A stretch of 64,000 nucleotides of DNA from Candidatus Gastranaerophilales bacterium (GTDB lineage: Bacteria > Cyanobacteriota > Vampirovibrionia > Gastranaerophilales > JAILCC01), in NCBI GenBank assembly GCA_045598245.1, contig JAZLLQ010000031.1, positions 5,532 to 69,531 of the forward strand, in the 5' to 3' direction. The notes under the pieces were generated by a model. The model ran no database searches and had not been told where the DNA came from. It saw only the letters and a list, made by a program, of their open reading frames with translations. Shown here one piece after another: positions 7,163-42,380 of this stretch (position 1 is its first letter; each line of letters starts with the position of its first letter). The position numbers and the translations under genes were made by a program.

Positions 7163-7164
7163 TT

Positions 7165-8637: not shown

Positions 8638-8730
8638 GACTACTTTGTAAACTAATTGTCCTAATAACTTTTTTATTATAAAATAGATTTAGTTTTATTT
8701 CAAAATTAATAAGAAATTGAAGGGGAATAT

Positions 8731-9762: not shown

Positions 9763-9770
9763 GATACGAA

Positions 9771-12548
9771 ATGGAATTTTCTGAAGAAGAGTCAAAACAA
9801 ATATTTAAAATATTCAAAGACGAAAGCGAAGAACATATCAAAAACATGAACCAGTGCCTTCTTGATATTGAGAAAAATCCTGAAGACATGGATTTGATAA
9901 CAGAAATGTTCAGAGAGGCACATAGTATCAAAGGTTCTGCAAGAATGTTGGAAGTAGTATCAATACAAACTCTTGCACACAAAATTGAAGATTTGCTCGG
10001 CTTTGCTAAGGAAGGAACTGTAGTAATCAACTCTCAAATGGTAGATTTAATTTGCAAAGGAATGGATGTTATTTCTCAAATTCTTGAAAAACTCGACTAC
10101 AATACATTGGATTACGTAGATGAAAGTTCCAATGCACTTTCTGAAGAAATAGAAAGCCTAAAAGATACAATTCTTTCAGGAAAACTTCAAAACAATCAAG
10201 ATAACAAACAAACTAACGATGAAGAAAAAATGACTTCAACAAATGTTGTCGAAAAAACAAAAGAGTCTGATAATATTGAATTTCAACCCAAAAGTACAAA
10301 CCTGACGAATTCATCAACAAACACAAACACGGAATTGGACATTATTTCCCACTACATAAATCAACTTGGCAGCAAATACAAAAAAGACAATGCCATTCTT
10401 GAAATTACTTCAATTATTACAAACAAACTTGACGAGAATATACCGGATACAAATAAAAACATTTTAAAACTAATTCTTGAAAACATTGAATATATAAAAG
10501 AAAACAACATTATTTCTTCTCCTGAAACAATACAGGCACTATCCGATTCATTATCATCCGCAATCGCACCAAAACCTGAAGAAGATTTAATACTTGTTAT
10601 GCAACGCCAAACTATATTAAAGCAAATGTTGGAATTAAGCAGAGAAAATGACAAAATTTTATCACTTCCGCAGCGACAAGAAGAACGAAAACAAATTGAA
10701 AATAAAATTGACCCGCAACACGATACAACAAAGAAACAATCAGGTTTCAACAAAGAAAACACCTATGAAACAGGAGGCATATTCAAAACATTAAGAGTTG
10801 ATACTCAAAAACTTGATAAACTTGAAAATCAGGTGGAAGAATTAATAGTATTTAAGATAAAAAACAAGCAACACTTAAATACATTAAATACTATAATTAA
10901 CGAACTTATTGATATTCAAAAACTACTGGGGAAAACCCTCTCCAACTACAAATACACAGATAAAAAAGTATCTAATCCTCAATTTGCACAGGAAAAAACA
11001 AGTTATTTGAAAAATTCACTTTCACATGTTGAAAAAATCGGAGAAAAAGCGGATTACTTGTATGCACTTGCAGATAAATTTCAAAAAAGATTTCTTAATG
11101 ATGATATAAGATTAAATTTCCTTACAGAAGAGTTTGAAAATACTGTTAAAAGTATAAGAATTCTACCGTTAGCTACAATATTTCACATGTTGCCAAGAAT
11201 GGTAAGAGATATATCAAGAGAACAGTCTAAGCAAGTTGAAATGATTATAACAGGCAGTGAAACGAGTGCAGATAAAACGGTTATTGAAGAAATAAAATCT
11301 CCATTAATCCACATTATCAGAAATGCAATAGACCATGGCATCGAAACTCCCGAGGAAAGAATTAGCAAAGGTAAAAACCCGACAGGTAAAATTCTTCTTA
11401 ACTCATATCACGCAGGAAATACCATTATTATTGAAGTTATTGATGATGGCAGAGGAATAAATATAGATAAAATAAGAGAAAAAGCTCTAAAACGAAATCT
11501 GCTTACTCCTGAAGAAATAAGTCAATTATCTGCAACTCAAATCATGAACTTGATTTTTTGGCCGGGCTTTACAACGGATGACAAAGTAACTGAAATTTCA
11601 GGCAGAGGCGTAGGTCTGGATGTAGTACACACCAAAATCGCTCAGCTTGATGGAAAAGTCAGTATCCAATCAGAAGAAGGAGCCGGTTTTAAAATAATAA
11701 TAAAAATTCCTATAACACTTGCAACATTAAAAGCACTTTTAGTTAAAATAGAAGAACAAATTTTTGCAATATCTTCCAGCTATGTAAAGACTGTAATGTC
11801 CGTAAGTAGTGATGAGATAATATCAAAAGAAGGAAAACCCCAAATAATTTACAATGACACTTCAATAAAATTAGAGAAATTGTCTGACTTATTAAGCATA
11901 AAAAAAGAAGAACAAAATACAAACAAACACAATATTGTAGTAGTCAATGTAGAAGAAACTCTCCTTGCAATTGAAGTTGACTCTTTCGTCAGGACTGAAG
12001 AAATTTTACAAAAGAAACTTAATCCTCCGCTGACAAGAGTTAAGAACATATCAGGAGTATCTTCATTATCCGGCGGTGAAACCTGCTTGATACTTAACCT
12101 GAATGATATTATGAAATCTGCTGTATCATCAAAAGAATTGTCAAAAAATTCGGCTACGTTAACTCTCAAAAGCAACAAAACATCTGTTCCTAAAATTCTG
12201 ATAGTCGATGATTCATATACCACAATAACTTTAGGAAAAAACATACTAAAATCCGGCGGATTCAATGTATTCACTGCAACTAACGGAGAAGATGCAATGA
12301 GTATAATGTCTTATGAAAAAATAGATTTAGTAATAACAGATTTAGAAATGCCTGTAATGACAGGAATTGAACTCATCGAAAAAATGAGAAACATGGGATT
12401 AACAATGCCGATAATAGTTCTTTCATCTCATGGTAATCCTAAAATAAAAGACGAATGTTTGTCAAAAGGTGCAAATGCCTTCATCGCAAAGAAAGATTTT
12501 TCGGAGAGATTCATTCTTGAAAGTATAAAAGAACAGTTAAAACTCTAA
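9771..12548 (+). CDS. cheA: hybrid chemotaxis histidine kinase CheA with C-terminal receiver (WspE-like)
   Basis: Hpt motif EAHSIKGSARMLE. Long low-complexity linker. HATPase boxes HIIRNAIDHGIE, DDGRGI, GRGVGLDVV. CheW-like domain. C-terminal REC (ILIVDDSYT...DLVITDLEMPVMTG...KGANAFIAKK). Confidence 0.95.
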   Translation: MEFSEEESKQIFKIFKDESEEHIKNMNQCLLDIEKNPEDMDLITEMFREAHSIKGSARMLEVVSIQTLAHKIEDLLGFAKEGTVVINSQMVDLICKGMDVISQILEKLDYNTLDYVDESSNALSEEIESLKDTILSGKLQNNQDNKQTNDEEKMTSTNVVEKTKESDNIEFQPKSTNLTNSSTNTNTELDIISHYINQLGSKYKKDNAILEITSIITNKLDENIPDTNKNILKLILENIEYIKENNIISSPETIQALSDSLSSAIAPKPEEDLILVMQRQTILKQMLELSRENDKILSLPQRQEERKQIENKIDPQHDTTKKQSGFNKENTYETGGIFKTLRVDTQKLDKLENQVEELIVFKIKNKQHLNTLNTIINELIDIQKLLGKTLSNYKYTDKKVSNPQFAQEKTSYLKNSLSHVEKIGEKADYLYALADKFQKRFLNDDIRLNFLTEEFENTVKSIRILPLATIFHMLPRMVRDISREQSKQVEMIITGSETSADKTVIEEIKSPLIHIIRNAIDHGIETPEERISKGKNPTGKILLNSYHAGNTIIIEVIDDGRGINIDKIREKALKRNLLTPEEISQLSATQIMNLIFWPGFTTDDKVTEISGRGVGLDVVHTKIAQLDGKVSIQSEEGAGFKIIIKIPITLATLKALLVKIEEQIFAISSSYVKTVMSVSSDEIISKEGKPQIIYNDTSIKLEKLSDLLSIKKEEQNTNKHNIVVVNVEETLLAIEVDSFVRTEEILQKKLNPPLTRVKNISGVSSLSGGETCLILNLNDIMKSAVSSKELSKNSATLTLKSNKTSVPKILIVDDSYTTITLGKNILKSGGFNVFTATNGEDAMSIMSYEKIDLVITDLEMPVMTGIELIEKMRNMGLTMPIIVLSSHGNPKIKDECLSKGANAFIAKKDFSERFILESIKEQLKL

Positions 12549-13924
12549 GCAACAGACAAATATTTTTTAGCATAATCTTTTAATAATGCTCTGCCCTTAT
12601 CTTCTTCATTTATAACCGGCAAAATGTCAACAGGTATACCGGCATGGTGAATTTTGGGAATTAAAGTTTTTGCATTGATTTTAATTTGCCCTACATAATT
12701 ATCGTCAGTATCATTACAAATAAAGTAACGTTCACCATCTTTCATTTCAGAACCAACAATTGTAATTTCATGCCCACCTATAATTTTCTTATTTGCATCT
12801 GTTTCTGTAATTCCTATAATGACATCCTTATTTTTTTCCAAAGTAGTTAATATATGTTTTTCAACCACATCAGGAGAATAAAAATATCCGTTCAAAATTG
12901 CATTGTCATCAACATTTTGATACACAACAGACGTTTTTTCGCCATCATTGTTAACTATACTTTCAACAAATGTTTTTTCAAATTCTGTTAATCCTGTGTC
13001 ATTTGCATTTAAAGAGCCGTATCGTTTGTCAGTTAAAGTATTATACGTAGACTGACTGCCTAATTGCATAAACGCAGATTGCATAAGCACATCAACACCA
13101 CTTCTGTTCATTCCGTCATACTGAGTATTTTGAACTCTTGCACGAATTATTGCATCTCTGTCCGGAGCAATTTTAATTGTAGCTTTTGTCCAATCAGCTT
13201 TTTCAGGTTTAACATTAAACATTTTAAGAAGATATAATGCATCCAATACATTTTTATTCAGATTAGCAAGTTTAATATTCTGAGAAACGGACATATCTTT
13301 TCCGCTTAAACTTTCAGCAAATCTTGCAAATTCAGCCGGACGTTTATCTGCAAGAGCAAATTCTATACTTGCCGCAACACAGCACGCACTATTTGCAACA
13401 TTCATATCTGCATTTGTTTTTGGGTCATAGGGATGAGTATCAAGAACAGACTTTTTATTTATTTTTTCTTGCAAAATAGTAGTTGCAAGATTTTCAGGAA
13501 TTTGCCCGAATTTTTGGTTAATGATAAATGGATTTGCCAATCTTTCTATTGTTTCAGAAAGAATTTTTTTACTGTCTAAACCCTGTATCCTTGGATTTTT
13601 AACTATTTTATACAGGTTTTCTAAAGTCGAACTTTTATCGTTTGACTCTCTGTTTGATAGCCTTCCGGTTTTATACAAAATATCAAAATTAATCTTATCT
13701 TTTCCGATTAAAGAAGAATTCAATTCTTTGTACATCCTCTTTTCTTCAGGTGTTGAAAATTTCTTCGTAAATAAATCAGAGAAAAAACCGGTAAAAGGTA
13801 TGTTATCATTTTTCATTGCAGACTCAGCCACAGCTGATGGAACAGAATACTTATTATGTTGTACAGAACCAGCATCAACAGTATTACCATGAATATTATA
13901 AACACCAACTGAATTTACATGCAT
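12545..13924 (-). CDS. papain-fold (C39-like) cysteine-peptidase-like protein, tandem paralog A
   Basis: 459 aa. Candidate Cys/His/Asp triad context: NSACCVAASIEFAL ... GGHEITIVG ... YFICNDTDDNY, reminiscent of the C39-like NACG...GH.VV..G...V..DP pattern. No Sec signal. The N-terminus MHVNSVGVYN...IPFTGFF carries the recurrent tag. By eye, about two thirds of aligned positions are identical to the neighbour at 14039..15433. Confidence 0.5.
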   Translation of the reverse strand: MHVNSVGVYNIHGNTVDAGSVQHNKYSVPSAVAESAMKNDNIPFTGFFSDLFTKKFSTPEEKRMYKELNSSLIGKDKINFDILYKTGRLSNRESNDKSSTLENLYKIVKNPRIQGLDSKKILSETIERLANPFIINQKFGQIPENLATTILQEKINKKSVLDTHPYDPKTNADMNVANSACCVAASIEFALADKRPAEFARFAESLSGKDMSVSQNIKLANLNKNVLDALYLLKMFNVKPEKADWTKATIKIAPDRDAIIRARVQNTQYDGMNRSGVDVLMQSAFMQLGSQSTYNTLTDKRYGSLNANDTGLTEFEKTFVESIVNNDGEKTSVVYQNVDDNAILNGYFYSPDVVEKHILTTLEKNKDVIIGITETDANKKIIGGHEITIVGSEMKDGERYFICNDTDDNYVGQIKINAKTLIPKIHHAGIPVDILPVINEEDKGRALLKDYAKKYLSVA

Positions 13925-14038
13925 GAAAATTGACCTAATTTACCTTATACATATATAAAACAAATAAACCATAAAAGTTGCCCCCACAACCTAAAACAAC
14001 TTATTACAAACAAAATAATTTTACAATTGCCGTAAAGA

Positions 14039-15433
14039 TTACCGGGCAAGAGTGTTGGATGCGTATTTTGCAGCATATTCTCTCAAAAGTTTCAGACCTT
14101 GATTTTCAGTATTATACGCAGGAAGAACATTAACCGGAATACCTGCATGATGAATTTGAGGAATAAGAGTCCTTGCCTTAACATCAACCTGTCCTACATA
14201 ATTATCATCAGTATCATTACAAATAAAATACAATTCGCCGTTTTCAATTTTTGAACCTATAACGGTAATTTCATGTCCCTGACCGCCAATAATCTTATTG
14301 TTTTCATCGAGCGGTGTAATTCCAATTATAACACTTTTCCCTTGTGCCAAAGTATCCAATATATGCTTTTGAGTTTCTTCGTGCTTATAGAAATAACCTT
14401 TAACAACACCATTTTCGTCAAGATTTTGATATACAACAGAAGTTTTTTCACCATCATTATTCACAACGCTTTCTACAAAAGTTTTTTCCATCTCTGTCAA
14501 ACCTGAATTATCAGCACTCAATGAACCGTACCTTTTATCTGTCAACGAGTTATATGTAGACTGACTGCCTAACTGCATAAATGCAGACTGCAAAAGAACA
14601 TCAACACTGCTTCGGTTCTTTCCGTCATATTGTGTGCTTTGAACTCTTGCCCGTATAATCGCATCTCTGTCAGGAGCAATTCGTATTACAGAAGAGTTCC
14701 AATCAGCATCTTTCGGTTTAATATTAAATAATTTGAGCAAATATATTGCATCCAGCAAATTACTATTGAGATTAGAAAATTCTATCTTTTGATTAATTGC
14801 CATTTCTTCACCGGTCAAACCTGCAACAAACCTTGCAAATTCCGCAGGCTTTTTATCAGCTAAAGAAAATTCAATACTTGCAGCTACACAACAAGCACTG
14901 GTTCCTACATTCATATCCTCTGCCGTTTTGGGTTCATACGGATTAGTCGCTTTGGCTATTGATGTATTTGTTTTTTCTGAAATTATACGAGAAGCCACAT
15001 CTGATGGAATTTGCCCGAATTTTTGATTAATAATAAAAGGGTTAGCCAATCTTTCAATAGTTTCGGACAATATTTTATTATTGCTTAATCCCTTAATTCT
15101 CGGCATTTTATATATTTTATACAAATTTTCCAAAGTTGAACTTTTATCATTTGATGAACGATTCGTCAATCTGCCGGTTTTATAAAGTATTTCAAAATTA
15201 GTTTTATCTTTTCCGCTTAAAGAAGCATTTATGTCTTTATACATATCATTTTCTTTTTGTGTGGAAAACTTTTTGCCGATTAAATCAGAAAAAAAGCCGT
15301 TAAAAGGAATTTCAGTCATTTTCATTACTTGTTGAACAGGCAAATTGCAAAGCAAATCAGAACTGCTGCATTTTGCACTATTAGAATGAACAGTTTGTAC
15401 AGAGCAAATATTATTTACAGGATTTATTTGCAT
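14039..15433 (-). CDS. papain-fold (C39-like) cysteine-peptidase-like protein, tandem paralog B
   Basis: 464 aa. TSACCVAASIEFSL ... GGQGHEITVIG ... YFICNDTDDNY. N-terminus MQINPVNNICSV...IPFNGFF. Paralog of 12545..13924. Confidence 0.5.
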   Translation of the reverse strand: MQINPVNNICSVQTVHSNSAKCSSSDLLCNLPVQQVMKMTEIPFNGFFSDLIGKKFSTQKENDMYKDINASLSGKDKTNFEILYKTGRLTNRSSNDKSSTLENLYKIYKMPRIKGLSNNKILSETIERLANPFIINQKFGQIPSDVASRIISEKTNTSIAKATNPYEPKTAEDMNVGTSACCVAASIEFSLADKKPAEFARFVAGLTGEEMAINQKIEFSNLNSNLLDAIYLLKLFNIKPKDADWNSSVIRIAPDRDAIIRARVQSTQYDGKNRSSVDVLLQSAFMQLGSQSTYNSLTDKRYGSLSADNSGLTEMEKTFVESVVNNDGEKTSVVYQNLDENGVVKGYFYKHEETQKHILDTLAQGKSVIIGITPLDENNKIIGGQGHEITVIGSKIENGELYFICNDTDDNYVGQVDVKARTLIPQIHHAGIPVNVLPAYNTENQGLKLLREYAAKYASNTLAR

Positions 15434-15520
15434 ATAGAAACACTTTTTCGGCTACCGATTTTATTAAAACAATAAACAAAAAAAGTTGCCAACTTAGAAT
15501 AAAATATTTATTATAGGATT

Positions 15521-16594
15521 ATGGAATCAGAAAATATTAAAATAAATTATATAAAAGAAGAAGAATTTTTGTCGTATTTAGACTGGCTAACCAGATTTAA
15601 AAACCCGATAAACAATATTCTAAGGGTAAGCGAAAAAATTATAACCAAAAATTCAATTTCACCAAAATTCAGCACAAAAAATGCAGAAAAGCTTAGTTTC
15701 TTTGAAAAAATAGAAATTGCTCAGTTTATTTGGGATAAATCATTAGATAATCTTTTAGGTGAAAATCGTTTAAAAAACTCCAAGTTAAAAGACTTTTTGT
15801 TATTTGAAGAAAACAAAACCTTTAATCAAAGAATATTATTAGAACAAATAAAATCACTTGAATATAAAAAAGAAATTCCAAACAAAGCAAGTTATGAAGA
15901 AATAAGAGAAGAAATTTTCTTTGAAATTGACTCACTTGTTGAATATTTTGAAAAGAAAAACATAAAAGCTACATTTTTAGAAAGACTTATTCTTAAAAAA
16001 AATTCTAATCTATCTAAAAGAAATTTATTTTACTCAAACGAAAAGTTAGCATCCATAAAATTGTTGTTTATAGTTGAAGGCATAACAGAGGAAAAATTAT
16101 TTCCACTATTTGCCAAACAAAAAGGATATGATTTTTCAGAAAGCGGCATAAAACTTTTTGCGGCAGGCGGGAAAACTCATATTGTAAAATATTATACTGA
16201 AATAAGAAATCTTCTTAATATTCCTGTCTTTATACTTCTTGATGCAGACGGAAAAGATATTATAAATTCGCTTAAAAGTATTCTTCTCCCCAAAGACGAA
16301 GTCTACATGATTTCAAAAGGTGAAATAGAAGATATTTTGCCTCACGAACTTATCGTAAAAACTCTAAACAATTTTTATTCTATGGAAGCATCAGTTGACA
16401 AAAATGACTTAAACAGATCGGAACCAATGACAAAAATCTTGTATAATTTATACAAAGAAAAAGGGTTTGGAGAATTTCACAAAGCAAAATTTGCACAAAT
16501 ATTAAGTGAAAACATAACAGATAAAACTGATGTCAGCCCTGAAATCGAAAGAATATTAAATTTAATTTTTTCAAAAAAATTCATTTCCGCATAA
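15521..16594 (+). CDS. Toprim-domain protein of the OLD-nuclease type, lacking the ATPase domain
   Basis: 357 aa. The C-terminal half carries the Toprim signature LLFIVEGITEE (catalytic Glu) ... GGKTHI ... VFILLDADGKD (DxD) ... GEIEDILP. The N-terminal ~180 aa is unrecognised and has no Walker A/B motifs. Confidence 0.6.
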   Translation: MESENIKINYIKEEEFLSYLDWLTRFKNPINNILRVSEKIITKNSISPKFSTKNAEKLSFFEKIEIAQFIWDKSLDNLLGENRLKNSKLKDFLLFEENKTFNQRILLEQIKSLEYKKEIPNKASYEEIREEIFFEIDSLVEYFEKKNIKATFLERLILKKNSNLSKRNLFYSNEKLASIKLLFIVEGITEEKLFPLFAKQKGYDFSESGIKLFAAGGKTHIVKYYTEIRNLLNIPVFILLDADGKDIINSLKSILLPKDEVYMISKGEIEDILPHELIVKTLNNFYSMEASVDKNDLNRSEPMTKILYNLYKEKGFGEFHKAKFAQILSENITDKTDVSPEIERILNLIFSKKFISA

Positions 16595-16666
16595 TATTAC
16601 AAATATTTACAAAGTAACAATAATATCCCTAAAACTGTATAATAATAAGTATAGAGGGCAAAATTT

Positions 16667-19408: not shown

Positions 19409-19416
19409 AAGTCTTT

Positions 19417-28679: not shown

Positions 28680-28710
28680 CAAGCGAGCAGTCTTTAAGCC
28701 TGCTCGCTTG
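28680..28710 (-). terminator. stem-loop terminator downstream of the autotransporter gene
   Basis: CAAGCGAGCAG (28680-28690) and CTGCTCGCTTG (28700-28710) form a perfect 11-bp GC-rich inverted repeat with a 9-nt loop, 20 nt after the stop. The trailing U-tract is only moderate. Confidence 0.6.
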
Positions 28711-28729
28711 GTATTTAAAACAACTAAGA

Positions 28730-35023: not shown

Positions 35024-35301
35024 GTAAATAAACTCCTCGCTCATAATAATTCTATTGTATTGACATAAATCTTATCATGAACATAAAAGCAATAGCAATA
35101 GCGGATGACGGTTTTAAAAAAATCAGACTTCTGTATTATATTTTTTTTCAACTATAAATGAGTTTTCGGGAAAGCAGAAAAAAAATTTTTTTTAATAATA
35201 AATTGTTAACAAATGCTAAGATATATACAAAATAAATATATAAAAATATTATGAAAAAAATATTAATATTTATGAAGGATATATTTTTAAATGTATAGAC
35301 A

Positions 35302-35330
35302 AGATTAATTGTTAATGTTACAATTAATCT
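35302..35330. promoter_or_regulatory. perfect 11-bp inverted repeat (operator-like palindrome or hairpin)
   Basis: AGATTAATTGT (35302-35312), 7 nt, ACAATTAATCT (35320-35330). Lies immediately 5' of the GC-enriched candidate RNA segment. Confidence 0.5.
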
Positions 35331-35575
35331 CGGAAATATTATTCGGAGTTTTTCGATTTATGCATTTCAAAATCTGTGCGATAGGTGCGATGGTGTACGG
35401 GCTAAAAAGTTTAAGCCACCCTCGAAGTATAAAATCCGGTACTAAGTCGGATACCACAGGGCAAAGTGTAACCAAGCAAGTGAAGTACGATGCGAATGGT
35501 ATTTTGGCAAATTATGGCAGAGCATTATTAGTAGAAAGCAACTTGAAGTAGAGTAGCTTTTTTTTGTGCCTTTTT
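35331..35575 (+). ncRNA. candidate structured non-coding RNA (family not recognised)
   Basis: A ~250-nt island visibly richer in G+C than the flanking ~A/T-only intergenic DNA inside a 700-nt gene-free gap. Local hairpins: 35392-35420 (GGTG..GGCTAAA / TTTAAGCC.CACC), 35434-35452 (ATCCG/CGGAT), 35455-35468 (CAC/GTG closing an AGGGCAAA loop). Tandem GTGCGAT x2 (35376-35391). Ends at AAAGC-N16-GCTTTTTTTT (35535-35565). The only ORF here (35309..35551, 80 aa) has no SD and atypical composition. Strand and ends are uncertain. Confidence 0.35.
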
Positions 35576-35677
35576 TAGCCCCAAATGACCACATAGGGAG
35601 ATTTGCAACCTAAAATATTCCGAAAGTTTTTGTAAATTTAACGTGTTCTTTGGCTCAATATAGCAATTCACACCAAT

Positions 35678-35717
35678 AAATTGTTTTTATTAATCTATGA
35701 ACATTAACTATGTTCAT
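35678..35717 (+). promoter_or_regulatory. conserved 22-nt upstream box plus 8-bp inverted repeat, copy 1
   Basis: AAATTGTTTTTATTAATCTATG (35678-35699) matches the copy at 37278-37299 in 21 of 22 positions. ATGAACAT (35697-35704) and ATGTTCAT (35710-35717) form an inverted repeat that starts at the same offset as in copy 2. The box ends 45 nt before the ATG at 35744. Confidence 0.55.
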
Positions 35718-35743
35718 GTAAGGTAATAAAGGCAAAAGGTATA

Positions 35744-37258
35744 ATGGAAGTAAAAGGCATCAAACCGCCTGACATCCCTATTGCAAAAAAACATGGGACA
35801 GATAGTTGCGGTTTTAAGGAAAAACATGCTACAACAATTCCGTTTGCACAACCTGTTTCTGTGCAGCGCGTAGACTATCCTGACTTGATTTTGTCAGGGA
35901 AAAGTCATATTGAAAAAACTTTACCATATGAAAGAAGTCAAACTGCTGTAACAACACCTGTAAAATCATCATTCATATCAAATGGCAGAAAATCTGTTTT
36001 AGGCACTCCCCCGAACTCCGGACACATATCCAAAGAAGAAATAGAACGTGCAAAAAGTTTTTTGTTTCACGCAAACGAACCTGAAATTAAACCCAAAGAA
36101 GGAAATATTTTAAAAAGATGCTATATGTACGTAGTTAACATATTTTCCAAATCAGATAATCAGCAGATAACAACCAACCACAAACAGTATAATTCTGATG
36201 CAATAAGATACGAAAAACATAAAAGCACTTTAGATAAATATTTCAAAGAAAAACACATACCGCAGGAATACTTAAGCGATGATGATTACTCCTACGCAGT
36301 AGTTATGATTGACAAACGTGCTAATGGTGAATTAACTCAGGAAGAATTTGAAGAAGAACGAATTGAATTTGAAAAATCAAAAGCACAAAGGAAAACTCAA
36401 GAAATCATACCCAAAGATGCAAAAACCTTAACACGGGAACAACAAGACGAATTAAACGAAACATTCGCAATGTTGGGAGATACTGATGCATGCTTGGTCT
36501 TTGCAACAGCAGAAGATGTTGATAATCCCGAAGAAAAAATGCTTATCTTAACAGAATTTGCATCTGAAGATATGATTGACAAACAAGGAGAAATTACGGA
36601 AGCCGTACTGGAAGTTTTACCTGAGACTTTAGAAGAAGGCTTCATTTCTATATGCGCGAAAGCAACAACTGCAATGTCTGAAAGCTCAATTAAAGAAAAA
36701 GAAAAACTATTGGAAAATGAACTCAAAATATTATCGGAGGAAGAAAAAGCACGTATAAGAGAAAAATTAGCAATACAAATGGAAGGTATAAAACTTCAAA
36801 ATGAACTTCTTGTATTAAATCATATTAAAGAAACGCAAAAATCCATAACTAAACACTATAAGGACAAAATTGAAAAAACAGAAGAAAAATACGAAGAAAT
36901 AAAAGAAGAACAACGAACTACCGAAAAAGAAAAAGAAAAACTGGAGGTAAAATTACACAAACGACAAAACAAATTAGAACAAATTGAAAAACTTATTAAA
37001 CAACTCAAAAAAGAACTTGCCACAATGCCCAAGTTTTTAAATCCGACAGCAAGAAGATTTCATTTGGCAAGAATCAATGCAGCAATACACTTAAAGGAAC
37101 ACGTAGAAGAATCTATACAAAACATTAATGCAGATATTAGAACCGCTGATATTGAAATATCAAGTGATTTAAGCATGCGCCAACAAGCCGTTCATAACAT
37201 GCAGGCGAGTTGTCGCTCTTGGATGATGTTTAATACGGCAAACTTAATTAATCAATAA
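35744..37258 (+). CDS. hypothetical Glu/Lys-rich coiled-coil protein (paralog 1)
   Basis: 504 aa. Shares a short block with the next gene (SKEEIERAKSFL vs TKEEISKARAFL). The C-terminal third is a heptad-like Lys/Glu-rich region (EKTEEKYEEIKEEQRTTEKEKEKLEVKLHKRQNKLEQIEKLIKQLKKEL). No signal peptide or TM. Confidence 0.6.
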   Translation: MEVKGIKPPDIPIAKKHGTDSCGFKEKHATTIPFAQPVSVQRVDYPDLILSGKSHIEKTLPYERSQTAVTTPVKSSFISNGRKSVLGTPPNSGHISKEEIERAKSFLFHANEPEIKPKEGNILKRCYMYVVNIFSKSDNQQITTNHKQYNSDAIRYEKHKSTLDKYFKEKHIPQEYLSDDDYSYAVVMIDKRANGELTQEEFEEERIEFEKSKAQRKTQEIIPKDAKTLTREQQDELNETFAMLGDTDACLVFATAEDVDNPEEKMLILTEFASEDMIDKQGEITEAVLEVLPETLEEGFISICAKATTAMSESSIKEKEKLLENELKILSEEEKARIREKLAIQMEGIKLQNELLVLNHIKETQKSITKHYKDKIEKTEEKYEEIKEEQRTTEKEKEKLEVKLHKRQNKLEQIEKLIKQLKKELATMPKFLNPTARRFHLARINAAIHLKEHVEESIQNINADIRTADIEISSDLSMRQQAVHNMQASCRSWMMFNTANLINQ

Positions 37259-37277
37259 TAAAGCAATTTTTACCGCC

Positions 37278-37320
37278 AAATTGTTTTTATTAATTTATGG
37301 CAATAGTATAAGCATGCCAT
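37278..37320 (+). promoter_or_regulatory. conserved 22-nt upstream box plus 6-bp inverted repeat, copy 2
   Basis: AAATTGTTTTTATTAATTTATG (37278-37299). ATGGCA (37297-37302) and TGCCAT (37315-37320) form an inverted repeat at the same offset as copy 1 but with a different sequence. The box ends 44 nt before the ATG at 37343. Confidence 0.55.
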
Positions 37321-37342
37321 GAAAAGGAAAGAGAAATCAGTA

Positions 37343-38695
37343 ATGACGGAAATTAGTTCATCAAGCTCAAATACAAGCTATGAAATCAGAAAAAATAACG
37401 GTGCGCAAGATTCCGAAACATCTACTTCATCAGAAATTCTAGGCAGCACATTTTCTGATGATAATAACATAACAGTTTCTCAATCCGATAACGTATTCAA
37501 CAACACAAACGAAAATATAAAAAAATCATCCGAAGTTACAATTCCTATCGGTAATGCAGAAAAAGCGACTGCAGAACAGGATATTTCCGAAGTTGTAAGT
37601 TCAGAATCATATAAAACAATGACTTCTAAACAACATAAACTTGCAAATTTAAGAGTTACAAAAGAAGAAATAAGCAAAGCAAGAGCATTTTTAGATAGTA
37701 CCGCAAAAGAACTCGGTATTGACCCGACCGATATTCCGCAAAAAGAAAAAGATTTGTACATGGGTCTCTCTATAGCATATGAAAGAGGACTAATTTCAAA
37801 AGAAGAATTTATAAAAGCAGTGGAAGAATTCGGCAGCGAAGAAGTAACAAAAGCAGTTAAAGAAACTTTTACGGAAAGTACGGATCAGGTTGATGAAAAG
37901 AAAATGCAAAAAATCAGAAAAGTTATCAACCATGTCGGAAAAATGCGTGCTTTAAACAAATTAAGAATAGCTAATGGCATATTCGGAAAAGATAAAGAAG
38001 AAACTCAACGTTTAAGAGAAGAATACTTCTTAAAAACCGCAGGTGATGTTGAAAGATATCATAAAGAATTAATGAAAGATATTGATAATGCACTTCCTGC
38101 AGGTTGCAGTGAAGATGTCAGAAATGCAGCAATTGGAACAGCCGATGAAATTGTAAAATCCGAAATGAATAGTATCAGCACATTAACTAAAAACAGAGGC
38201 TATTCTGACAATTTTCAAAAACAATTAAAGAAAACTTATGAACAAATTTGGACAAGAATTATTGAAAATCGTCAAAAATTCATCGCATCTGTAAGCAGAT
38301 ATCTTAATCATAAAGTATTCATTAAAAAACTCGAATTGAAAGAAAGAAAAGAAATAGCCGATAAAAAACTTGAAGAAGCACAAATAGCTCAAGCTAATGC
38401 TACAAAAGCAAAAGAAAAAGCTAATCTTATTAAAGAAAATGCACAAAAAATGCTACGTTGGTTTGGTGTTGATGAAGATGCAAAGAAAAAAGACAAAATT
38501 AAATTTATACATGACCAGTCGCCACGACTCTTCGTAGACGGAAAATATGCAATGAGAGCAAAAAAATACGCCGAAGAAGAAGAATACGATGCAAATGCAG
38601 CAAAAAGACTTGCTCTAAAAGATGTTGAATGGGCTGAAAAATCACTGGCATACGCATCTGCACAAAGAGACGCATTTTTAATATTAATGTCGTAG
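37343..38695 (+). CDS. hypothetical Glu/Lys-rich coiled-coil protein (paralog 2)
   Basis: The track ORF starts at 37319, but that ATG lies within the inverted repeat. The ATG at 37343 follows AAGGAAAGAG and reproduces the box-to-start spacing of paralog 1. Ser-rich N-terminus, TKEEISKARAFL block, Lys/Glu-rich C-terminal half. Confidence 0.6.
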   Translation: MTEISSSSSNTSYEIRKNNGAQDSETSTSSEILGSTFSDDNNITVSQSDNVFNNTNENIKKSSEVTIPIGNAEKATAEQDISEVVSSESYKTMTSKQHKLANLRVTKEEISKARAFLDSTAKELGIDPTDIPQKEKDLYMGLSIAYERGLISKEEFIKAVEEFGSEEVTKAVKETFTESTDQVDEKKMQKIRKVINHVGKMRALNKLRIANGIFGKDKEETQRLREEYFLKTAGDVERYHKELMKDIDNALPAGCSEDVRNAAIGTADEIVKSEMNSISTLTKNRGYSDNFQKQLKKTYEQIWTRIIENRQKFIASVSRYLNHKVFIKKLELKERKEIADKKLEEAQIAQANATKAKEKANLIKENAQKMLRWFGVDEDAKKKDKIKFIHDQSPRLFVDGKYAMRAKKYAEEEEYDANAAKRLALKDVEWAEKSLAYASAQRDAFLILMS

Positions 38696-38698
38696 TTA

Positions 38699-39427
38699 TT
38701 AACCTATGCAGTCACAAATTGTAGCAAGTTTTGGAAGTGCTTCCTTACATTCATTCAATAATGAAAAGCCGTTTTTAGTCTTTTCAAGTTTATCGGGAAC
38801 ACCATTACCATCTTCATCCCTGTAACGATTCAATACTGTAACACCTGCTGTACCAACACCAAGTGTAGCACCTGTAGCTTTTAGAATACCATTACCTGCA
38901 TACAAAGCACCTTTTTGAGCACCTTTGCCCATTAACTTAAAGAACGCTTCCTGCTCTGCCTGAGTAACACCTTTTTTAGCAATACCTTCCATCGCTGTTG
39001 CAAATGCACCAAGAGCTTTATTTGTATTACGTGTAAAGAAAGAAGATACATTCGTAACTTCAGGGACAGGTCTGCCTTTCAAAGAAGTAACTCCTCTGTG
39101 AACAATAGCACCCAAATTATATAAAGGCTTTTCTAAAGATAATTTTTGTGTAATTTTCTTCAACGCACCGACAGACATTTTCTTAGCGGCATAGAAAGCA
39201 GCAGCGGCATAAAGTACTGTCGTTAGAAAAAACTTTGCAGGTGAGTCTTTTTTGTTTTCAGGTTTACTATCATTTATCAAATCTGCAATTGATGAAAAAT
39301 CAACTCTGTCCAATTTATCGGATAGGCCTGTCGGTCTGTCATAAATACCTGCTTCATTTTGAACAAGATCAACTACTTCACCTGAACCTTTAAAATTGTT
39401 ATAGGAATTAATTGCAGAAATTTGCAT
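38699..39427 (-). CDS. hypothetical 242-aa single-pass membrane protein (N-terminal tag family)
   Basis: GGTGAGG SD. N-terminus MQISAINSYNNFKGSGE. Central hydrophobic helix FFLTTVLYAAAAFYAA. Gly/Ala/Lys-rich C-terminal half. No family recognised. Confidence 0.6.
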   Translation of the reverse strand: MQISAINSYNNFKGSGEVVDLVQNEAGIYDRPTGLSDKLDRVDFSSIADLINDSKPENKKDSPAKFFLTTVLYAAAAFYAAKKMSVGALKKITQKLSLEKPLYNLGAIVHRGVTSLKGRPVPEVTNVSSFFTRNTNKALGAFATAMEGIAKKGVTQAEQEAFFKLMGKGAQKGALYAGNGILKATGATLGVGTAGVTVLNRYRDEDGNGVPDKLEKTKNGFSLLNECKEALPKLATICDCIG

Positions 39428-39587
39428 AAATTTTTTACCTCACCTTGTATATCGATTATACCAAAATGTCAAAAAAAATAAAGTTGCTAGTTGAATATTG
39501 TTACAATTTACAAAAATTTACAAAGCGTACACAGATAACACTTTTTTTCATATTGCTGTTTTATATATAATATAGGTTAGGATGTAT

Positions 39588-42380
39588 ATGAATATTGGCA
39601 AGATAAATATATTAAATAAAACAGGTTTTTATGGTGAACTTCCTGTTAAAGACACAAAGATTAATGATAACACACAGTTCAAAAACTCTTCGGAAGTGTT
39701 TTCAGACGCAGCCGCTCAGGCAATAACATCCATAAACGCTCCTGTACGGACATCTGCAACATTTATAAGAAATGTAGATTTACCGTACCTTAACCTGAGA
39801 GGAAACCTGTACGTTTTACCAAACGGACAGAAATGCCTTATTGCAAAAAAAGAAGGTCCTTGCATACTAAAAACATTCTTCAAAGTCGGCTCAATGAATG
39901 AACCTGATAAATTAAGAGGTATAAGCCACTTCATTGAACACAACTTATTTAACGGCTCTAAAAATTTAAAATCAAACGAATTTGTTGAAAATGTGAACAA
40001 AATGGGCGGACGCTATAATGCGTCAACAGGATATATAGGAACAGACTATTTTATCCAATCCCCCTTGCACACAGAAAAAGATTTGGAAGAATTTATAAAA
40101 ATGCATGCAGATATGCTTTCTAACCCTAAATTTAGTGAAGATATGCTTGCAAAAGAGAAAGGTCCTGTAATTTCCGAAATTCAAATGTTGGATGACAGCC
40201 CTCAAAACTTAGCCGCAAATACAGTTTTAAGAAATCTTTTTGGCATTAAATCTACAAGCAGTGACTTAATAGGCGGAAGCGTTGAAAACATAAAAAATCT
40301 TACAAGAGATGATGTTGTAAATTATTACAGACAGAATTACAATCCCAAAACAGCTTTAACCGTTGTAGTCGGCGATGTTGATGAGAAAAAAACATTACAA
40401 ATGTTAAGTGAAAATTTTGCTCAATTTAAAACTCCTGCCAACTTTAAACAACATTATGAAACTCTAACTCCGATAACGAAAAGCATTAATCAGCTTGTAT
40501 ATTCTCCTAATGCACAAGCAACGACAATACAAATAGGCTTTGCTTGTCCTTCTGACCCAAAAGAGTTAGCAGCAATAAATGTTTTAATAAGTGCATTAAC
40601 AGGATACGGAAATGCAAAACTGACAAAAGCAATGAGAGATATGAACCTGACAATAAGTTCAGGTATAGAAAAAATAGGCAACGCACCTAATGCCCCAACA
40701 GAAGTAACTTTTTCAACAACAACTTCCCATAATAATGAAGATGAAGTTTTAAAGACGATTTATCAAAAAATACATGAAACTACATACATGCCAATTTCCG
40801 CAGACGATTTACAAACGGCAAAAAACAAAATAAGAAATCAGGCAAACCACATGGCTGAATCTAATATGAGCATAGTTTCATATATAGGTGCAAATTTCAT
40901 CAACGGAAATGATATTGAAAGTATGATCGATTTTGAAAAAAATCTTAATAGTATAACAGCACAGGATGTCATGAATGCAGCAAGAAAATTTCTTGATTTA
41001 AATAAGGCATCTATTTGTGTTGTACGCCCACAAAAGCAAAGTAATGTGTCATTTTGCGGTATAAAAAAAGATTACGATATTAAAACCTACCAAACACCCA
41101 ATAATGCCAAAATAACAACACTGAACGTACCTAACGCCAAATTATATTCATTATCATATAATCTCAAAACAACTACTCCACCTAAAAGTATAGCAATACC
41201 GGCATTGCTTACAAGAATAATGACTAAAGGTACATCATTAATGTCTGAAGAAAACTTCTTGGACTTAAAAGATAAAAACAATATAGAAAGTTGTGTTTGG
41301 ATAACTCACAGAAGCGGCAATATAGATTTATCATTCCCAAAAGAAAGTCTGCAAACAGTACTCTCAGTAATACAACAAAACATGTATGCACCTGCTTTAA
41401 CTCAGGAAAATTTTGAAAAAGCGAAGAAGGAAATTAAAAATCTATATCTTTCCAGTCCTAAAAGTGCAGCGGACAGAGCTGATGAAGAAGTATTCCAAAA
41501 TTCTCCGGCTTGCTCATCGTTAAGAAAAATATGCGAAGAATTAGACAAAGTAAGTTTAAATGATGTTATAAATTATTATAACCAAATTATTGCATACCCT
41601 GAATGTAAAATCAGCCTTAGCGGAAATCTAGAAGATCCTGCAATACTTAATACAGTATATTCATCAATTACACAAAACGGCAGAATTTACAACCCAAATG
41701 AAGTAAAAATCAAATCTCAGGTAAAAGACTTACAAACAACCAAAGTAGTAACTGACACACAAGAACGAAATCAAGCAGATATTGTTCAAGCATTCAGTTT
41801 TCATGAAACCGGAAATATAAAAGACAGAGCAGCGTTTTTGCTTCTTAATGAAATTTTAGGCGGTAACAGCAACTCAAGGTTATTCCAGGATTTAAGAGAA
41901 AAACAAAAACTTGCATACCACGTAAGCTCATCATACGGTGCAGGCAGTCCTGAAACAAGAGGGGCGTTGGTTCTTAAAATAGGCACAACCACGGAAAATA
42001 AAAACAATCCTGAACAAAGTAAAAATCTCCAAAAAGCACTAAACGGCTTTAGAAATCATTTAAACAAGATAATTCACGAAGAAGTAACGGAGGACGAATT
42101 AAAAGCCGCAAAACTCCAAATAAAAAGTCAACTTGCATACAATTTAGAATCGACAGAAGGCAAAAACTCAATGCTTGTATCTTCAATGGGAACACTCTAT
42201 AAAACACAATACCTGCCACAACTATTAGCCGCCATTGATAATGCAACAGCAAAAGATATAAAAGCTATTGCAAATTACTATCTTACAAAACCAAGCGTAA
42301 TTTCCATAGTAGGCTCAAAGAAAACAATATCAGATAATGCAGAATATTTAAAAACTCTTGGCGAAGTTAAAAATTTCTGA
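39588..42380 (+). CDS. two-unit M16 (pitrilysin/insulinase) family zinc peptidase
   Basis: About 930 aa. Inverted zinc motif HFIEHNLFNGS (HxxEH) in the first unit. The second M16-like unit (residues ~500-930) has no HxxEH. ATG at 39588 with AGGA 6 nt upstream. N-terminus MNIGKINILNKTGFYGE. Confidence 0.85.
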   Translation: MNIGKINILNKTGFYGELPVKDTKINDNTQFKNSSEVFSDAAAQAITSINAPVRTSATFIRNVDLPYLNLRGNLYVLPNGQKCLIAKKEGPCILKTFFKVGSMNEPDKLRGISHFIEHNLFNGSKNLKSNEFVENVNKMGGRYNASTGYIGTDYFIQSPLHTEKDLEEFIKMHADMLSNPKFSEDMLAKEKGPVISEIQMLDDSPQNLAANTVLRNLFGIKSTSSDLIGGSVENIKNLTRDDVVNYYRQNYNPKTALTVVVGDVDEKKTLQMLSENFAQFKTPANFKQHYETLTPITKSINQLVYSPNAQATTIQIGFACPSDPKELAAINVLISALTGYGNAKLTKAMRDMNLTISSGIEKIGNAPNAPTEVTFSTTTSHNNEDEVLKTIYQKIHETTYMPISADDLQTAKNKIRNQANHMAESNMSIVSYIGANFINGNDIESMIDFEKNLNSITAQDVMNAARKFLDLNKASICVVRPQKQSNVSFCGIKKDYDIKTYQTPNNAKITTLNVPNAKLYSLSYNLKTTTPPKSIAIPALLTRIMTKGTSLMSEENFLDLKDKNNIESCVWITHRSGNIDLSFPKESLQTVLSVIQQNMYAPALTQENFEKAKKEIKNLYLSSPKSAADRADEEVFQNSPACSSLRKICEELDKVSLNDVINYYNQIIAYPECKISLSGNLEDPAILNTVYSSITQNGRIYNPNEVKIKSQVKDLQTTKVVTDTQERNQADIVQAFSFHETGNIKDRAAFLLLNEILGGNSNSRLFQDLREKQKLAYHVSSSYGAGSPETRGALVLKIGTTTENKNNPEQSKNLQKALNGFRNHLNKIIHEEVTEDELKAAKLQIKSQLAYNLESTEGKNSMLVSSMGTLYKTQYLPQLLAAIDNATAKDIKAIANYYLTKPSVISIVGSKKTISDNAEYLKTLGEVKNF

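Follow-up and report, generated by a model that had tools for sequence, protein, structure and literature searches.

Unrelated genes in the window share an N-terminal tag

The DNA analysed here (the window) is 64 kb of a Gastranaerophilales (Melainabacteria) genome with a GC content of ~33%, and 10 of its 55 genes encode proteins that begin alike, with a short sequence termed here the tag (Table 1). Nine of these N-termini had been listed in an earlier note; all are present in the window at the starts given there, letter for letter, and the tenth, a probable one, lies beyond the range that the note had covered. The corrected starts on which the list relied are identical to the public gene calls on the source contig in eight of the nine cases (464, 459, 930, 242, 126, 91, 1068, and 206 a.a.), and for the ninth neither the start at 24865 nor a longer one at 24937 is on record in those calls. 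An AGG/GGAG-type Shine-Dalgarno sequence, correctly spaced, precedes most of the nine starts. Since the codons for the tag residues vary synonymously from tag to tag among the nine genes, the likeness resides at the protein level. The window also contains a Wsp-like chemosensory cluster that includes a CheA-receiver fusion and a GGDEF response regulator.

Table 1 Tags and tag-bearing genes of the window
Feature	Position	Strand	Gene and basis
464-a.a. Cys/His (papain-like) protein tag, residues 1-46, MQINPVNN … IPFNG(FF)	15296..15433	(-)	gene 14039-15433; sequence, 120 homologues, AlphaFold2
459-a.a. Cys/His paralogue tag, MHVNSVGV … IPFTG(FF)	13787..13924	(-)	gene 12545-13924; 65% identical, P0002
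242-a.a. probable single-pass membrane protein, compact tag MQISAINSYNNFKG	39386..39427	(-)	gene 38699-39427; homologue P0251
930-a.a. M16 peptidase tag MNIGKINILNKTGFYG	39588..39635	(+)	gene 39588-42380; Pfam, orthologues; HxxEH intact
1068-a.a. GT5 glycogen-synthase-like protein tag, MQVNLNLQ … LLTFGG	27963..28088	(-)	gene 24882-28088; start = public call
143-a.a. acidic protein tag MRIGPVNNIYNNPYNK…, second motif doubtful	24791..24865	(-)	gene 24434-24865; GGAG upstream; no public call for start
126-a.a. protein tag MKISPICTHTNIKSQPNFAA	28433..28492	(-)	gene 28112-28492; start = public call
91-a.a. protein tag MIINNIEFNNSFGR(G)	24376..24417	(-)	gene 24142-24417; start = public call
GNAT/RimI-like acetyltransferase N-terminal extension, MQITSVLA … SLSFGN, weakest member	19879..20037	(-)	gene 19417-20037; start = public call
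Probable tenth tag, MSIGVDKNYNP…GYKG	63227..63310	(-)	gene 62369-63310, 313 a.a., TM near C-terminus
Four tagged genes in a row, same strand (126 a.a., GT5 giant, 143 a.a., 91 a.a.)	24142..28492	(-)	gene order

The tag opens, at the extreme N-terminus, with M-x(1-2)-[IV]-[NSG]-x-[IV]-N(-x-x-N-N-Y) (motif 1), continues in a polar N/S/Q/Y-rich linker of variable length without acidic residues, and closes with a small aromatic motif (motif 2), [small]-F-[KNST]-[GAS], after which φ-F or x-E often comes. The pattern proposed earlier, M-x-[IV]-x-x-[IV]-N, fits only four of the nine N-termini when applied strictly, whereas the looser M-x-[IV]-[NSGT]-x-[IV] fits eight, and the second motif, given as F-x-G, is doubtful in the products starting at 24865 (FCR) and 20037. 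The nine proteins had been described as unrelated, which holds except for the products of 15433(-) and 13924(-); these are paralogues with 65% identity, and the independent families therefore number eight. Small proteins resembling the 126-a.a. tagged protein were found in L003 (2199) and L085 (1843). In L083, 4 of 15 genes are tagged, and in some contigs the share reaches up to 15-25%, the majority being orphans.

Orthologues in unrelated families retain the tag

The likeness might be an artefact of AT-rich codon bias (Asn/Ile/Lys) together with freedom in choosing start codons, a reading favored by the low GC content, the three or four starts that the earlier reader had shifted inward, and the minority of N-termini that fit the strict pattern. 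At internal positions, the loose pattern occurs at 0.54% after any residue and at 0.27% after an internal Met. Eight hits were seen versus 0.7-1 expected (128 candidate starts, 55 genes), with an enrichment of ~10-fold or greater over internal positions; the P value of ~6e-6 for this excess, at a conservative p = 0.0075, is indicative only, because the pattern was picked post hoc.

The homologues gave a clearer answer. In the 460-a.a. Cys/His (papain-like) family, motif 1 is present in 67 and motif 2 in 102 of 120 homologues (internal controls, 6 and 14), and conservation of F44 reaches at least 90%; in the M16 family, the corresponding counts are 57 and 58 of 120 (internal controls, 10 and 1). 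An HMM of the tag scored at least 8 bits in 1.6% of candidate N-termini, a figure that takes in part of the HMM training set, versus 0.07% of internal control peptides. The consensus is M-x-[RK]-I-N-S-I-N-S-V-N-N-Y-x6-8-F-K-G in the M16 orthologues, M-x-[IV]-[NG]-x-[IV]-N-N-Y … F-x-G-φ-F in the 460-a.a. family, and MNLIINGLPKVSFKA in the 5'-nucleotidase family, and the sole homologue of the 242-a.a. orphan membrane protein (P0251, 41% identity) retains MQISAINFNNSFKG. Judged from these sequences, at least four unrelated families conserve the tag, which always starts at Met1. Since orthologues of unrelated families keep the tag while their linkers diverge, the tag is not an AT-bias effect, and the Lys/Asn/Ile codon bias that the earlier note had raised against its own proposal is not borne out. 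The public calls for eight of the nine starts and the synonymous codon variation also speak against an artefact; this reading, hardly credible by now, was ruled out by the conservation in orthologues.

The tag is polar, acid-poor, and predicted to be disordered

The tag is enriched in N, S, Q, Y, I, and P and depleted in L (0.4x) and D/E (about 0.2-0.4x), with fractions of 0.18 vs 0.07 for N, 0.04 vs 0.10 for L, and 0.03-0.04 vs 0.13 for D+E. Positions 2-15 are free of acidic residues in 65-91% of tags, as compared with 22% of untagged N-termini. The distance from Met1 to the F of motif 2 spans 8-64 residues across the tags, the F being located at 37-64 in the 460-a.a. family, at 8-36 (mode 21) in M16, and at 11-14 in compact tags, and 10-50 disordered residues often come after F-K-G. 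One protein (P0242) repeats AFKGE seven times internally. In the AlphaFold2 models, residues 1-52 of the papain-like protein have pLDDT values <50 and the remainder >90, and residues 1-53 of the M16 peptidase are disordered (pLDDT <50); in both families modelled, the tag is predicted to lie in a disordered N-terminal extension.

The earlier observation that the tagged proteins carry no Sec, Tat, or lipoprotein signal was confirmed, as the maximum 10-residue Kyte-Doolittle hydropathy of their N-termini is at most 1.6, whereas proteins of the window with classical signals (BamB-like, SLH, SIMPL, autotransporter, and SLT proteins) reach 2.3-3.7, and neither an RR nor a lipobox was found in the nine listed tags. 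There is no model of the tag in Pfam or NCBIfam and no published description was found in a literature search; the tag matches no described signal. It is a modular, bipartite N-terminal element within a disordered extension, specific to the order Gastranaerophilales and conserved throughout it, and may serve as a targeting peptide.

The N/Q/Y-rich composition with periodic I/V could also mean that the N/Y/I-rich segment (…INNYNY…, …SVNNY…) makes amyloid-like or β-zipper contacts, by which the tagged proteins would co-assemble in loose analogy to NLR-associated bacterial amyloid signalling motifs, and one tagged AAA ATPase has an nSTAND3 match. The known motifs of that kind pair the N-terminus of an NLR with the C-terminus of an effector encoded by an adjacent gene, and such pairing was not seen here. 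In addition, the N richness is partly genome-wide and motif 2 is left unexplained; homotypic assembly is a very improbable account.

Tagged peptidases, other enzymes, and membrane proteins

The tagged proteins include M16, GT5, GNAT, papain-like, 5'-nucleotidase, methyltransferase, and AAA ATPase types, membrane proteins, and orphans. In the M16 peptidase, H114, E117, and H118 are invariant. In the 460-a.a. family, C182, H387, and D407/D409/D410 are invariant among 36 sequences, and in the model of the 464-a.a. protein a helix (182-194) begins at C182 and a strand (387-397) at H387. The 459- and 464-a.a. proteins have no sequence match in Pfam, NCBIfam, or the PDB, and the best Foldseek matches were to peptidases of families C1 (procerain, cathepsin S) and C10 (SpeB), with E values of ~3e-3 and low TM-scores. 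From the invariant Cys/His pair and this weak fold match, both proteins are candidate papain-like (clan CA) cysteine hydrolases. The label "C39-like" used previously was not sustained, since the weak match is to C1/C10, and no Peptidase_C39 is listed among the called genes of L081-L083, L085, and L086 or the window proteins scanned with Pfam.

These peptidases raise the question of whether the tag is a cleavable leader, propeptide, or degron. A lineage-specific peptidase (the M16 enzyme or the order-wide papain-like family) would cut it at F-x-G or beyond, and the cut would be coupled to activation, to regulated degradation, or to export via another transporter. Motif 2 terminates in G/A/S upstream of a folded domain, the papain-like family with its invariant Cys/His is confined to the lineage where the tag was found, and the M16 enzyme retains HxxEH; some M16 enzymes elsewhere process targeting peptides. 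Against cleavage, GG at -2/-1 occurs in one protein only, both candidate peptidases are themselves tagged, the listings above contain no Peptidase_C39, disordered residues often continue after F-K-G, FKG is also present as internal repeats, and AlphaFold2 did not dock the M16 tag into the enzyme's own chamber. We regard this reading as improbable.

The 5'-nucleotidase is informative in another respect. To our knowledge, the solved relatives of the tagged protein (UshA, CD73, NadN, CpdB, SoxB, and YfkN) are all exported, and the tag occupies the place of the Sec signal that other bacteria use on 5'-nucleotidases. Bitopic or tail-anchored membrane proteins are likewise among the cargo, and some of them have K/R-rich segments just before the TM, which suggest that the tag stays cytoplasmic. 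The GT5 giant, which has a TM-like window at about 1030 (a C-terminal TM segment), and the 313-a.a. protein look tail-anchored because the TM segment is at or near the C-terminus.

A serious rival to export is therefore cytoplasmic recruitment, in which the two short linear motifs bind one hub in the cytoplasm (such as a scaffold, a chaperone, an adaptor, or an organiser of the cytoskeleton or the cell pole), soluble enzymes are co-localised with the cytoplasmic tails of membrane proteins, and nothing is exported. Its case rests on the cofactor-dependent cytosolic types among the cargo (AAA ATPase, GT5, GNAT, methyltransferase), on the membrane proteins that bear the tag on an N-terminal tail preceded by K/R-rich segments, on the apparent tail anchors of the GT5 giant and the 313-a.a. 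protein, and on the seven internal AFKGE motifs of P0242; the disordered linkers of variable length and the operon-like run of four tagged genes are also in its favor. Hub binding does not require motif 1 to begin exactly at Met1, the density of tagged genes, mostly orphans, would give one hub many clients, the 5'-nucleotidase family is exported wherever its structure is known, and no candidate hub was found. Weighing these points, we consider both the recruitment to a hub and the co-localisation that it would bring about doubtful.

Tagged genes adjoin flagellar export genes in related genomes

The earlier note had proposed a shared targeting, export, or processing route; a common route is still the most economical reading. 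Its vague comparison with flagellar type III substrates fared unevenly: synteny, grammar, and composition lend it circumstantial support, whereas the specific likeness to FlgM found no support. The small tagged proteins, including the product of 24434-24865, gave no PF04316 match even at E values up to 10, and a BLASTP search with B. subtilis FlgM reached a best E of ~1.6 in the window and 80 related loci.

No flagellar genes are located within the 64-kb window. FlhB (PF01312, 1.8e-114; NPTH intact) is encoded in related genomes, as are FliJ, FliK, a FliA-like sigma factor, and a protein of the FlgE/F/G type; of 41 full-length FlhB proteins from the related loci, 34 keep NPTH. The genes for the tagged papain-like and 5'-nucleotidase proteins are flanked in ~42 of 80 related loci by fliJ-fliK-flgE/F/G on one side and by flhB with a fliA-like sigma gene on the other, a synteny that covers mainly two tagged families. 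The papain-like gene also adjoins fliC-fliD, and a gene for a protein with repeated FKG motifs adjoins motAB. FliK of the related genomes reads MN[VI][SD]T…S/T linker…KSFE[DE]EM, and the FlgE/F/G-type protein carries V[TN]FKTFLGG at a position that we tentatively align with the gate-recognition motif (GRM) of Salmonella FlgG. The GRM pattern F-x-x-x-φ is present in the 460-a.a. family (FNGFF, FSGLF, FKGVF) and several small proteins (FKGIF, FKSIF, FAATL), and absent from most M16 tags (FKGSE, FKGAE; FKG-[SAN]-E is the most conserved) and from the 242-a.a. membrane protein (FKGSG).

From these data we infer that the tag may be an export signal with the flagellar T3SS as its receptor; our preferred reading, a tentative one, is that a flagellar-type III export apparatus reads it as a bipartite signal. 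In this scheme, the apparatus would recognize the tag in the cytoplasm, motif 2 would dock the protein as the GRM of rod/hook subunits does on FlhB-C, and the extreme N-terminus would then enter and open the gate, such that non-flagellar enzymes and orphan proteins would leave the cytoplasm without Sec. The many orphans and dense tagging in the clade fit a sorting signal with many fast-evolving substrates. Several features argue against the flagellar reading: cargo that depends on cytosolic cofactors (PAN/CDC48-like AAA ATPase, GT5 glycogen-synthase-like protein, GNAT, SAM methyltransferase), membrane-protein cargo, the seven-fold AFKGE repeat, which looks like a multivalent binding motif, and the conservation of the tag in sequence, which T3SS signals normally do not show. 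The short end of the Met1-F spacing also counts against it, as export in Salmonella stalls when the spacing is short (PMC10936197). So do the misfit of the most conserved tags (M16) to F-x-x-x-φ, the absence of flagellar genes from the window, whose chemosensory cluster is of the Wsp-like kind, and the restriction of the synteny mainly to two tagged families. Most Gastranaerophilales retain only a subset of flagellar genes (Soo et al. 2014, PMC4040986), which leaves room for an export-only apparatus.

Implications of a common route

Taken together, the tag most likely marks unrelated proteins for a single shared route of targeting or export, which may be the flagellar one. Consensus tags on unrelated proteins have repeatedly led to dedicated machines (sortases, exosortases, rhombosortases, T9SS), and this one is non-hydrophobic, N-terminal, and confined to an uncultured order commonly found in the guts of humans and animals. 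If the tag does direct export, the secretome of Gastranaerophilales would be definable from sequence alone, the incomplete flagellar gene sets in many of them would be explained, and a portable secretion tag would be at hand. A role in cytoplasmic recruitment would instead indicate a new organising hub in this sister lineage of cyanobacteria. Under either reading, the tag provides a handle on the shared fate of dozens of orphan proteins.

A bolder and unlikely extension is that a flagellum-derived type III apparatus serves Gastranaerophilales as a general Sec-independent route for secretion, perhaps injection, with the consensus signal M-x-I-N-x-I-N…F-K-G and more than 10% of genes as substrates in some lineages. 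The substrates would then include proteases, a nucleotidase, glycosyl-, acetyl-, and methyltransferases, an AAA ATPase, and many orphans. Among T3SSs, this would be the first whose signal is defined by sequence, and a common human-gut relative of cyanobacteria would have a large effector-like secretome.

Comparison with known systems

[quoted passage not shown] The tag resembles this arrangement in its disordered N-terminus, I/V-rich extreme end, polar sequence-tolerant linker, and Phe-centred motif; FliK and the FlgE/F/G-type protein of related genomes have a tag-like layout, and tagged genes are syntenic with flhB, fliK, and fliA. In contrast to the early subunits, the tagged cargo are not axial flagellar proteins and lack D0 domains, some being membrane proteins or cofactor-dependent cytosolic enzymes, and the tag is far more conserved in sequence, has spacings down to ~8 residues, and in many cases (FKG-S-E) has no φ at +4.

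Within their first ~25 residues, T3SS signals in general are enriched in Ser/Asn/Ile/Pro and depleted in Leu and acidic residues, and injectisome effectors and the non-flagellar proteins exported by flagella (Campylobacter Cia/Fed) have non-cleaved, disordered N-terminal signals. The tag shares the disorder and this composition, being rich in Ser/Asn/Ile/Pro and poor in Leu and acidic residues, as well as the heterogeneous, often orphan cargo, which includes proteases, acetyltransferases, and glycosyltransferases. It differs in having a consensus sequence, which those signals lack, and no injectisome genes were seen here.

Double-glycine leaders, the substrates of C39 peptidase-ABC transporters (PCAT), are likewise non-hydrophobic N-terminal leaders of 15-30 residues that end in small residues, with cysteine peptidases nearby. 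The tag lacks their LSxxELxxIxGG helix, its -2/-1 residues are K-G, N-G, S-G, or K-A, with G-G only in the GT5 protein, its linker varies in length, its cargo reaches 1068 a.a., and the neighbouring peptidase is papain-like, by the weak C1/C10 fold match, rather than C39.

Several consensus sorting signals are served by dedicated machines, including Tat S-R-R-x-F-L-K, YSIRK-G/S, ESPR, PEP-CTERM, LPXTG, and the T9SS C-terminal domains. The tag is similar to these in being a lineage-restricted consensus on many unrelated proteins of one genome; all of them occur together with a C-terminal TM segment or a hydrophobic Sec/Tat signal, whereas the tag accompanies neither.

A shared two-part tag at the N-termini of dissimilar proteins

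All nine N-termini that the earlier note had quoted as carrying a common tag were confirmed in the window sequence. An AGG/GGAG-type ribosome-binding site precedes most of these starts, and eight of the nine are identical to those of the public contig annotation, in which the ninth, at 24865, has no record. The strict pattern proposed for them (M-x-[IV]-x-x-[IV]-N ... F-x-G) fits only four of the nine, whereas a looser one, M-x-[IV]-[NSGT]-x-[IV], fits eight, and two of the nine proteins described as unrelated are paralogues with 65% identity. At internal positions, the background for this comparison, the looser pattern occurs at a rate of 0.54%, and approximately 0.7–1 occurrences would be expected among 128 candidate starts of 55 genes, where eight were observed. 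Since the pattern was picked after the fact, this enrichment proves little, and we therefore examined orthologues.

The 464-aa Cys/His (papain-like) protein belongs to a family of approximately 2000 uncharacterised proteins with N-termini such as MVIGAINNYNYSIANQ..., MLVNSVSN... and MAINPIS..., in which motif 1 (M-x-I-N-x-I-N) is followed by a low-complexity linker and then by [AVS]-F-x-G-[FLI]-F, a form of motif 2 (F-K-G) whose Phe is conserved at a level of at least 90%. The M16 peptidase has more than 1100 relatives: one large group begins with M-x-[RK]-I-[NS]-x-I-N-S-V-N-N-Y-x4-K-x-x-F-K-G (e.g. MFRINSINSVNNYQINHKPVFKG), and remoter members retain M-E-[IV]-N-K together with a lengthy Y/Q/N/P-rich extension. 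Motifs 1 and 2 were found in 67 and 102 of 120 Cys/His family members (6 and 14 in internal windows of the same proteins) and in 57 and 58 of 120 M16 family members (10 and 1). In addition, the single relative of the orphan membrane protein, with 41% identity, retains MQISAINFNNSFKG, and a 5'-nucleotidase/metallophosphoesterase beside the Cys/His family in 48 related loci has the N-terminus MNLIINGLPKVSFKA.

A codon-bias artefact is excluded, as the tag is kept in orthologues. Synonymous codons vary between the tags, so the likeness resides at the protein level, and conservation of the 5' coding region as RNA was discarded as an explanation. The HMM check suggested in the earlier note bore the tag out: a tag HMM matched candidate N-termini approximately 20 times as often as internal control peptides, a count that includes part of the training set. 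Because it is conserved in orthologues, recurs in other families and stands out in the profile test, we regard the tag, on sequence grounds, as a real, modular, two-part element.

Motif 1 begins at Met1, and a polar linker of varying length places the Phe of motif 2 at positions 8–36 in the M16 family and 37–64 in the Cys/His family. Motif 2 has the general form [small]-F-[KNST]-[GAS], and φ-F or x-E frequently comes next. Residues 1–25 of the tagged proteins show an excess of N, S, Q, Y, I and P and a shortage of L, D and E. In AlphaFold2 models of the Cys/His and M16 families, the enzyme bodies are confident (mean pLDDT 83 and 87, respectively) and the initial 52–53 residues are unstructured. 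The tag showed no docking into the M16 enzyme's own catalytic chamber in a model with 70 orthologues in the input, but remained unstructured outside it, which argues against a cleaved leader or degron, one of two weaker explanations; the other is a homotypic assembly motif.

Tagged proteins and their surroundings

The features are listed in the table, where L001, L065 and L082 are related loci and L081 and L085 are related contigs. For the two Cys/His proteins, Foldseek pointed weakly to papain-fold C1/C10 peptidases and not to C39, so the label 'C39-like' attached to them was not sustained. A GNAT in the window is also tagged, and the three small proteins of the four-gene run (126, 143 and 91 aa) are orphans. 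In related contigs, the tag occurs on a 5'-nucleotidase, a SAM methyltransferase, a PAN/CDC48-type AAA ATPase, several membrane proteins, where it sits on the N-terminal tail, and many orphans. Among GT5 types, only the giant paralogue carries it. Tags are dense in the clade of the window, with 10 of 55 genes tagged in the window itself and 4 of 15 in another related contig; the density in other loci is lower, approximately 1–2% of genes, in a sample biased by fetching loci around one family. The four consecutive tagged genes of the operon-like run, which lies just upstream of rnpA/rpmH-like ORFs, suggest by this arrangement that their products work together.

Coordinates of features in the window and in related loci
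Location	Coordinates (strand)	Feature	Remarks
Window	6143-12548	Chemosensory cluster	Double CheW, receiver-GGDEF protein, MCP, CheA fused to CheW and receiver
Window	12545-13924 (-)	Cys/His protein, 459 aa	Tagged; invariant C182, H387, D407-410
Window	14039-15433 (-)	Cys/His protein, 464 aa	Tagged; same invariant residues
Window	15521-16594	OLD-like TOPRIM gene	
Window	23050-23304 (-)	Small ORF	Prepilin-like N-terminus (...MKIKAQSLIEFAIILMAVTIVAI...)
Window	24142-28492 (-)	Operon-like run of four tagged genes	126 aa; 1068-aa GT5 glycogen-synthase-like protein with C-terminal TM segment; 143 aa; 91 aa
Window	24434-24865 (-)	143-aa protein of this run	Tagged
Window	28730-35044 (-)	2104-aa giant, putative autotransporter	Classical signal peptide; sole family match, one Chlamydia-PMP repeat
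Window	35744-38695 (+)	Neighbouring acidic proteins, 504 and 458 aa	Untagged; coiled-coil-rich in appearance by eye; no family matches
Window	38699-39427	Probable single-pass membrane protein, 242 aa	Tagged
Window	39588-42380 (+)	M16 peptidase	Tagged; HxxEH intact
Window	62369-63310	Tenth protein	Probably tagged
L001	5850-7016	Pilin-like ORF	
L082	15392-16141	Pilin-like ORF	
L065	5716-6537	Tyr/Asn/Arg/Pro-repeat protein	Sec signal; nearly pure repeats (...YYNNYYQRPYYNN...)
L081	3390-4814	PAN/CDC48-like AAA ATPase	Tagged
L081	4969-7353	794-aa membrane protein	Tagged
L081	10001-11524	P0242, FKG-repeat protein, 507 aa	Seven tandem [AS]-F-K-G-E-[AE]-E-Q-T-E-E repeats; HEAT-like C-terminus
L085	17222-18679	Canonical 485-aa housekeeping glycogen synthase	Untagged; MKILFVSAEVSPFAKVGGLADV

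The window has a GC content of approximately 33%, and the nearest relatives of its proteins are in MAGs labelled Candidatus Gastranaerophilales, Melainabacteria or 'Cyanobacteria bacterium'; the order Gastranaerophilales lacks photosynthesis and is a sister lineage to cyanobacteria. The window contains housekeeping genes, envelope proteins and the chemosensory cluster, which is Wsp-like and not a classical flagellar Che system. Classical signals are found on the BamB-like lipoprotein, SLT/TPR protein, PMP-repeat giant, SIMPL and SLH proteins. The acidic pair has the giant surface protein on one side and the tagged membrane protein and M16 peptidase on the other, with comparable neighbours in a related contig; in L082, a 2888-aa counterpart of the giant adjoins the M16 gene. 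GCCGATAA octamers with at most one mismatch number 82 in the whole window, mostly intragenic, versus 34.6 ± 6.2 in dinucleotide-preserving shuffles.

Flagellar neighbourhoods of the tagged genes

All occurrences found of the Cys/His family are in the Gastranaerophilales-type lineage: at least 565 stretches were confirmed in species-representative genomes, and of the 80 loci kept, nearly all bear Gastranaerophilales or Melainabacteria names. The TOPRIM gene adjoins the family in 72 of 81 loci. In approximately 42 of the 80 loci, including that of the complete MEL.A1 genome CP017245, this pair and the tagged 5'-nucleotidase are flanked by fliJ, fliK and a flgE/F/G-type gene on one side and by a FliA/WhiG-like sigma gene and flhB on the other; the NPTH site of FlhB is intact in 34 of 41 full-length sequences. 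The pair adjoins fliC and fliD in another clade, and cheA in the window. Recurring in flagellar/chemotaxis neighbourhoods, the Cys/His family may be a motility-linked hydrolase. The Tyr/Asn/Arg/Pro-repeat protein, present in L065 and 22 other loci, is conserved immediately upstream of fliJ.

Searched against 1.84 billion representatives, the tag profile matched only an M16 fragment and, as the sole non-M16 match, P0242 (N-terminus MTHIPAIGQ...) at E ≤ 1e-3, a threshold for which its 32 columns are too short with most tags, so that the result is not a global inventory. The P0242 gene lies directly after motA, motB and a gene for a 202-aa protein of unknown function. Upstream of the tagged genes, the sigma-28 promoter TAAA-N14-16-SCCGAWAW had no matches; GCCGAAAA precedes two of them, but lacks a -35 element, and the sigma-28 promoter idea was abandoned.

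Export or cytoplasmic recruitment

The interpretation that we favour, with limited confidence, is that the tag derives from the export signals of the flagellar type III system and now serves cargo that is not flagellar, which it would deliver to a flagellar-type III apparatus. The grounds are the T3SS-like composition of the tag, the recurrence of flagellar synteny in differing arrangements, a large and orphan-rich cargo, and the tagged nucleotidase, whose family is, to our knowledge, exported in every solved member. [quoted passage not shown] The FliK of related genomes shares this layout, with MN[VI][SD]T..., an S/T-rich linker and KSFE[DE]EM. Their FlgE/F/G-type protein contains V[TN]FKTFLGG, which resembles the tag's [VT]-x-F-K-[GA] and which, by alignment with Salmonella FlgG, we take to occupy the gate-recognition position. 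Most Gastranaerophilales genomes retain only a subset of flagellar genes (Soo et al., PMC4040986); as a conjecture, such partial sets would fit an export-only apparatus.

A serious rival is that the tag is a cytoplasmic recruitment motif. Four of the tagged enzyme types (AAA ATPase, GT5, GNAT and methyltransferase) depend on cytosolic cofactors, K/R-rich segments precede the TM in some tagged membrane proteins, suggesting that the tag stays cytoplasmic, and the internal FKG repeats of P0242 have the appearance of a multivalent binding motif. Furthermore, the best-conserved tags (FKG-S-E) do not match the F-x-x-x-φ of the flagellar gate-recognition motif, the Met1-to-Phe spacing is sometimes very short, and the tag has a consensus, which T3SS signals usually lack. 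These points limit our confidence in export. The type III hunch of the earlier note accordingly gains from synteny, layout and composition and is weakened by several cargo types, the motif misfit and the spacing, while searches gave no support for the 143-aa protein as FlgM, to which the tag had been likened.

Comparison with known signals

No Pfam or NCBIfam model covers the tag, and our literature searches returned nothing on it. A hydrophobic core, a lipobox and a Tat-type twin-arginine motif are all absent from the tagged N-termini, excluding Sec, Tat and lipoprotein signals, and the tag is not of the double-glycine kind. Prepilin-type K-G|F cleavage fits poorly, with no hydrophobic stretch downstream, as do BMC or encapsulin cargo peptides, β-clamp or PIP boxes, ClpS N-degrons and N-glycosylation sequons; a further poor fit, the class IB chaperone-binding motif, shares no more than a partial [IV]-x-x-[IV]-x-N likeness. 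We class the tag among N-terminal targeting signals. If the flagellar interpretation is true, it would be unusual among such signals in having a true consensus.
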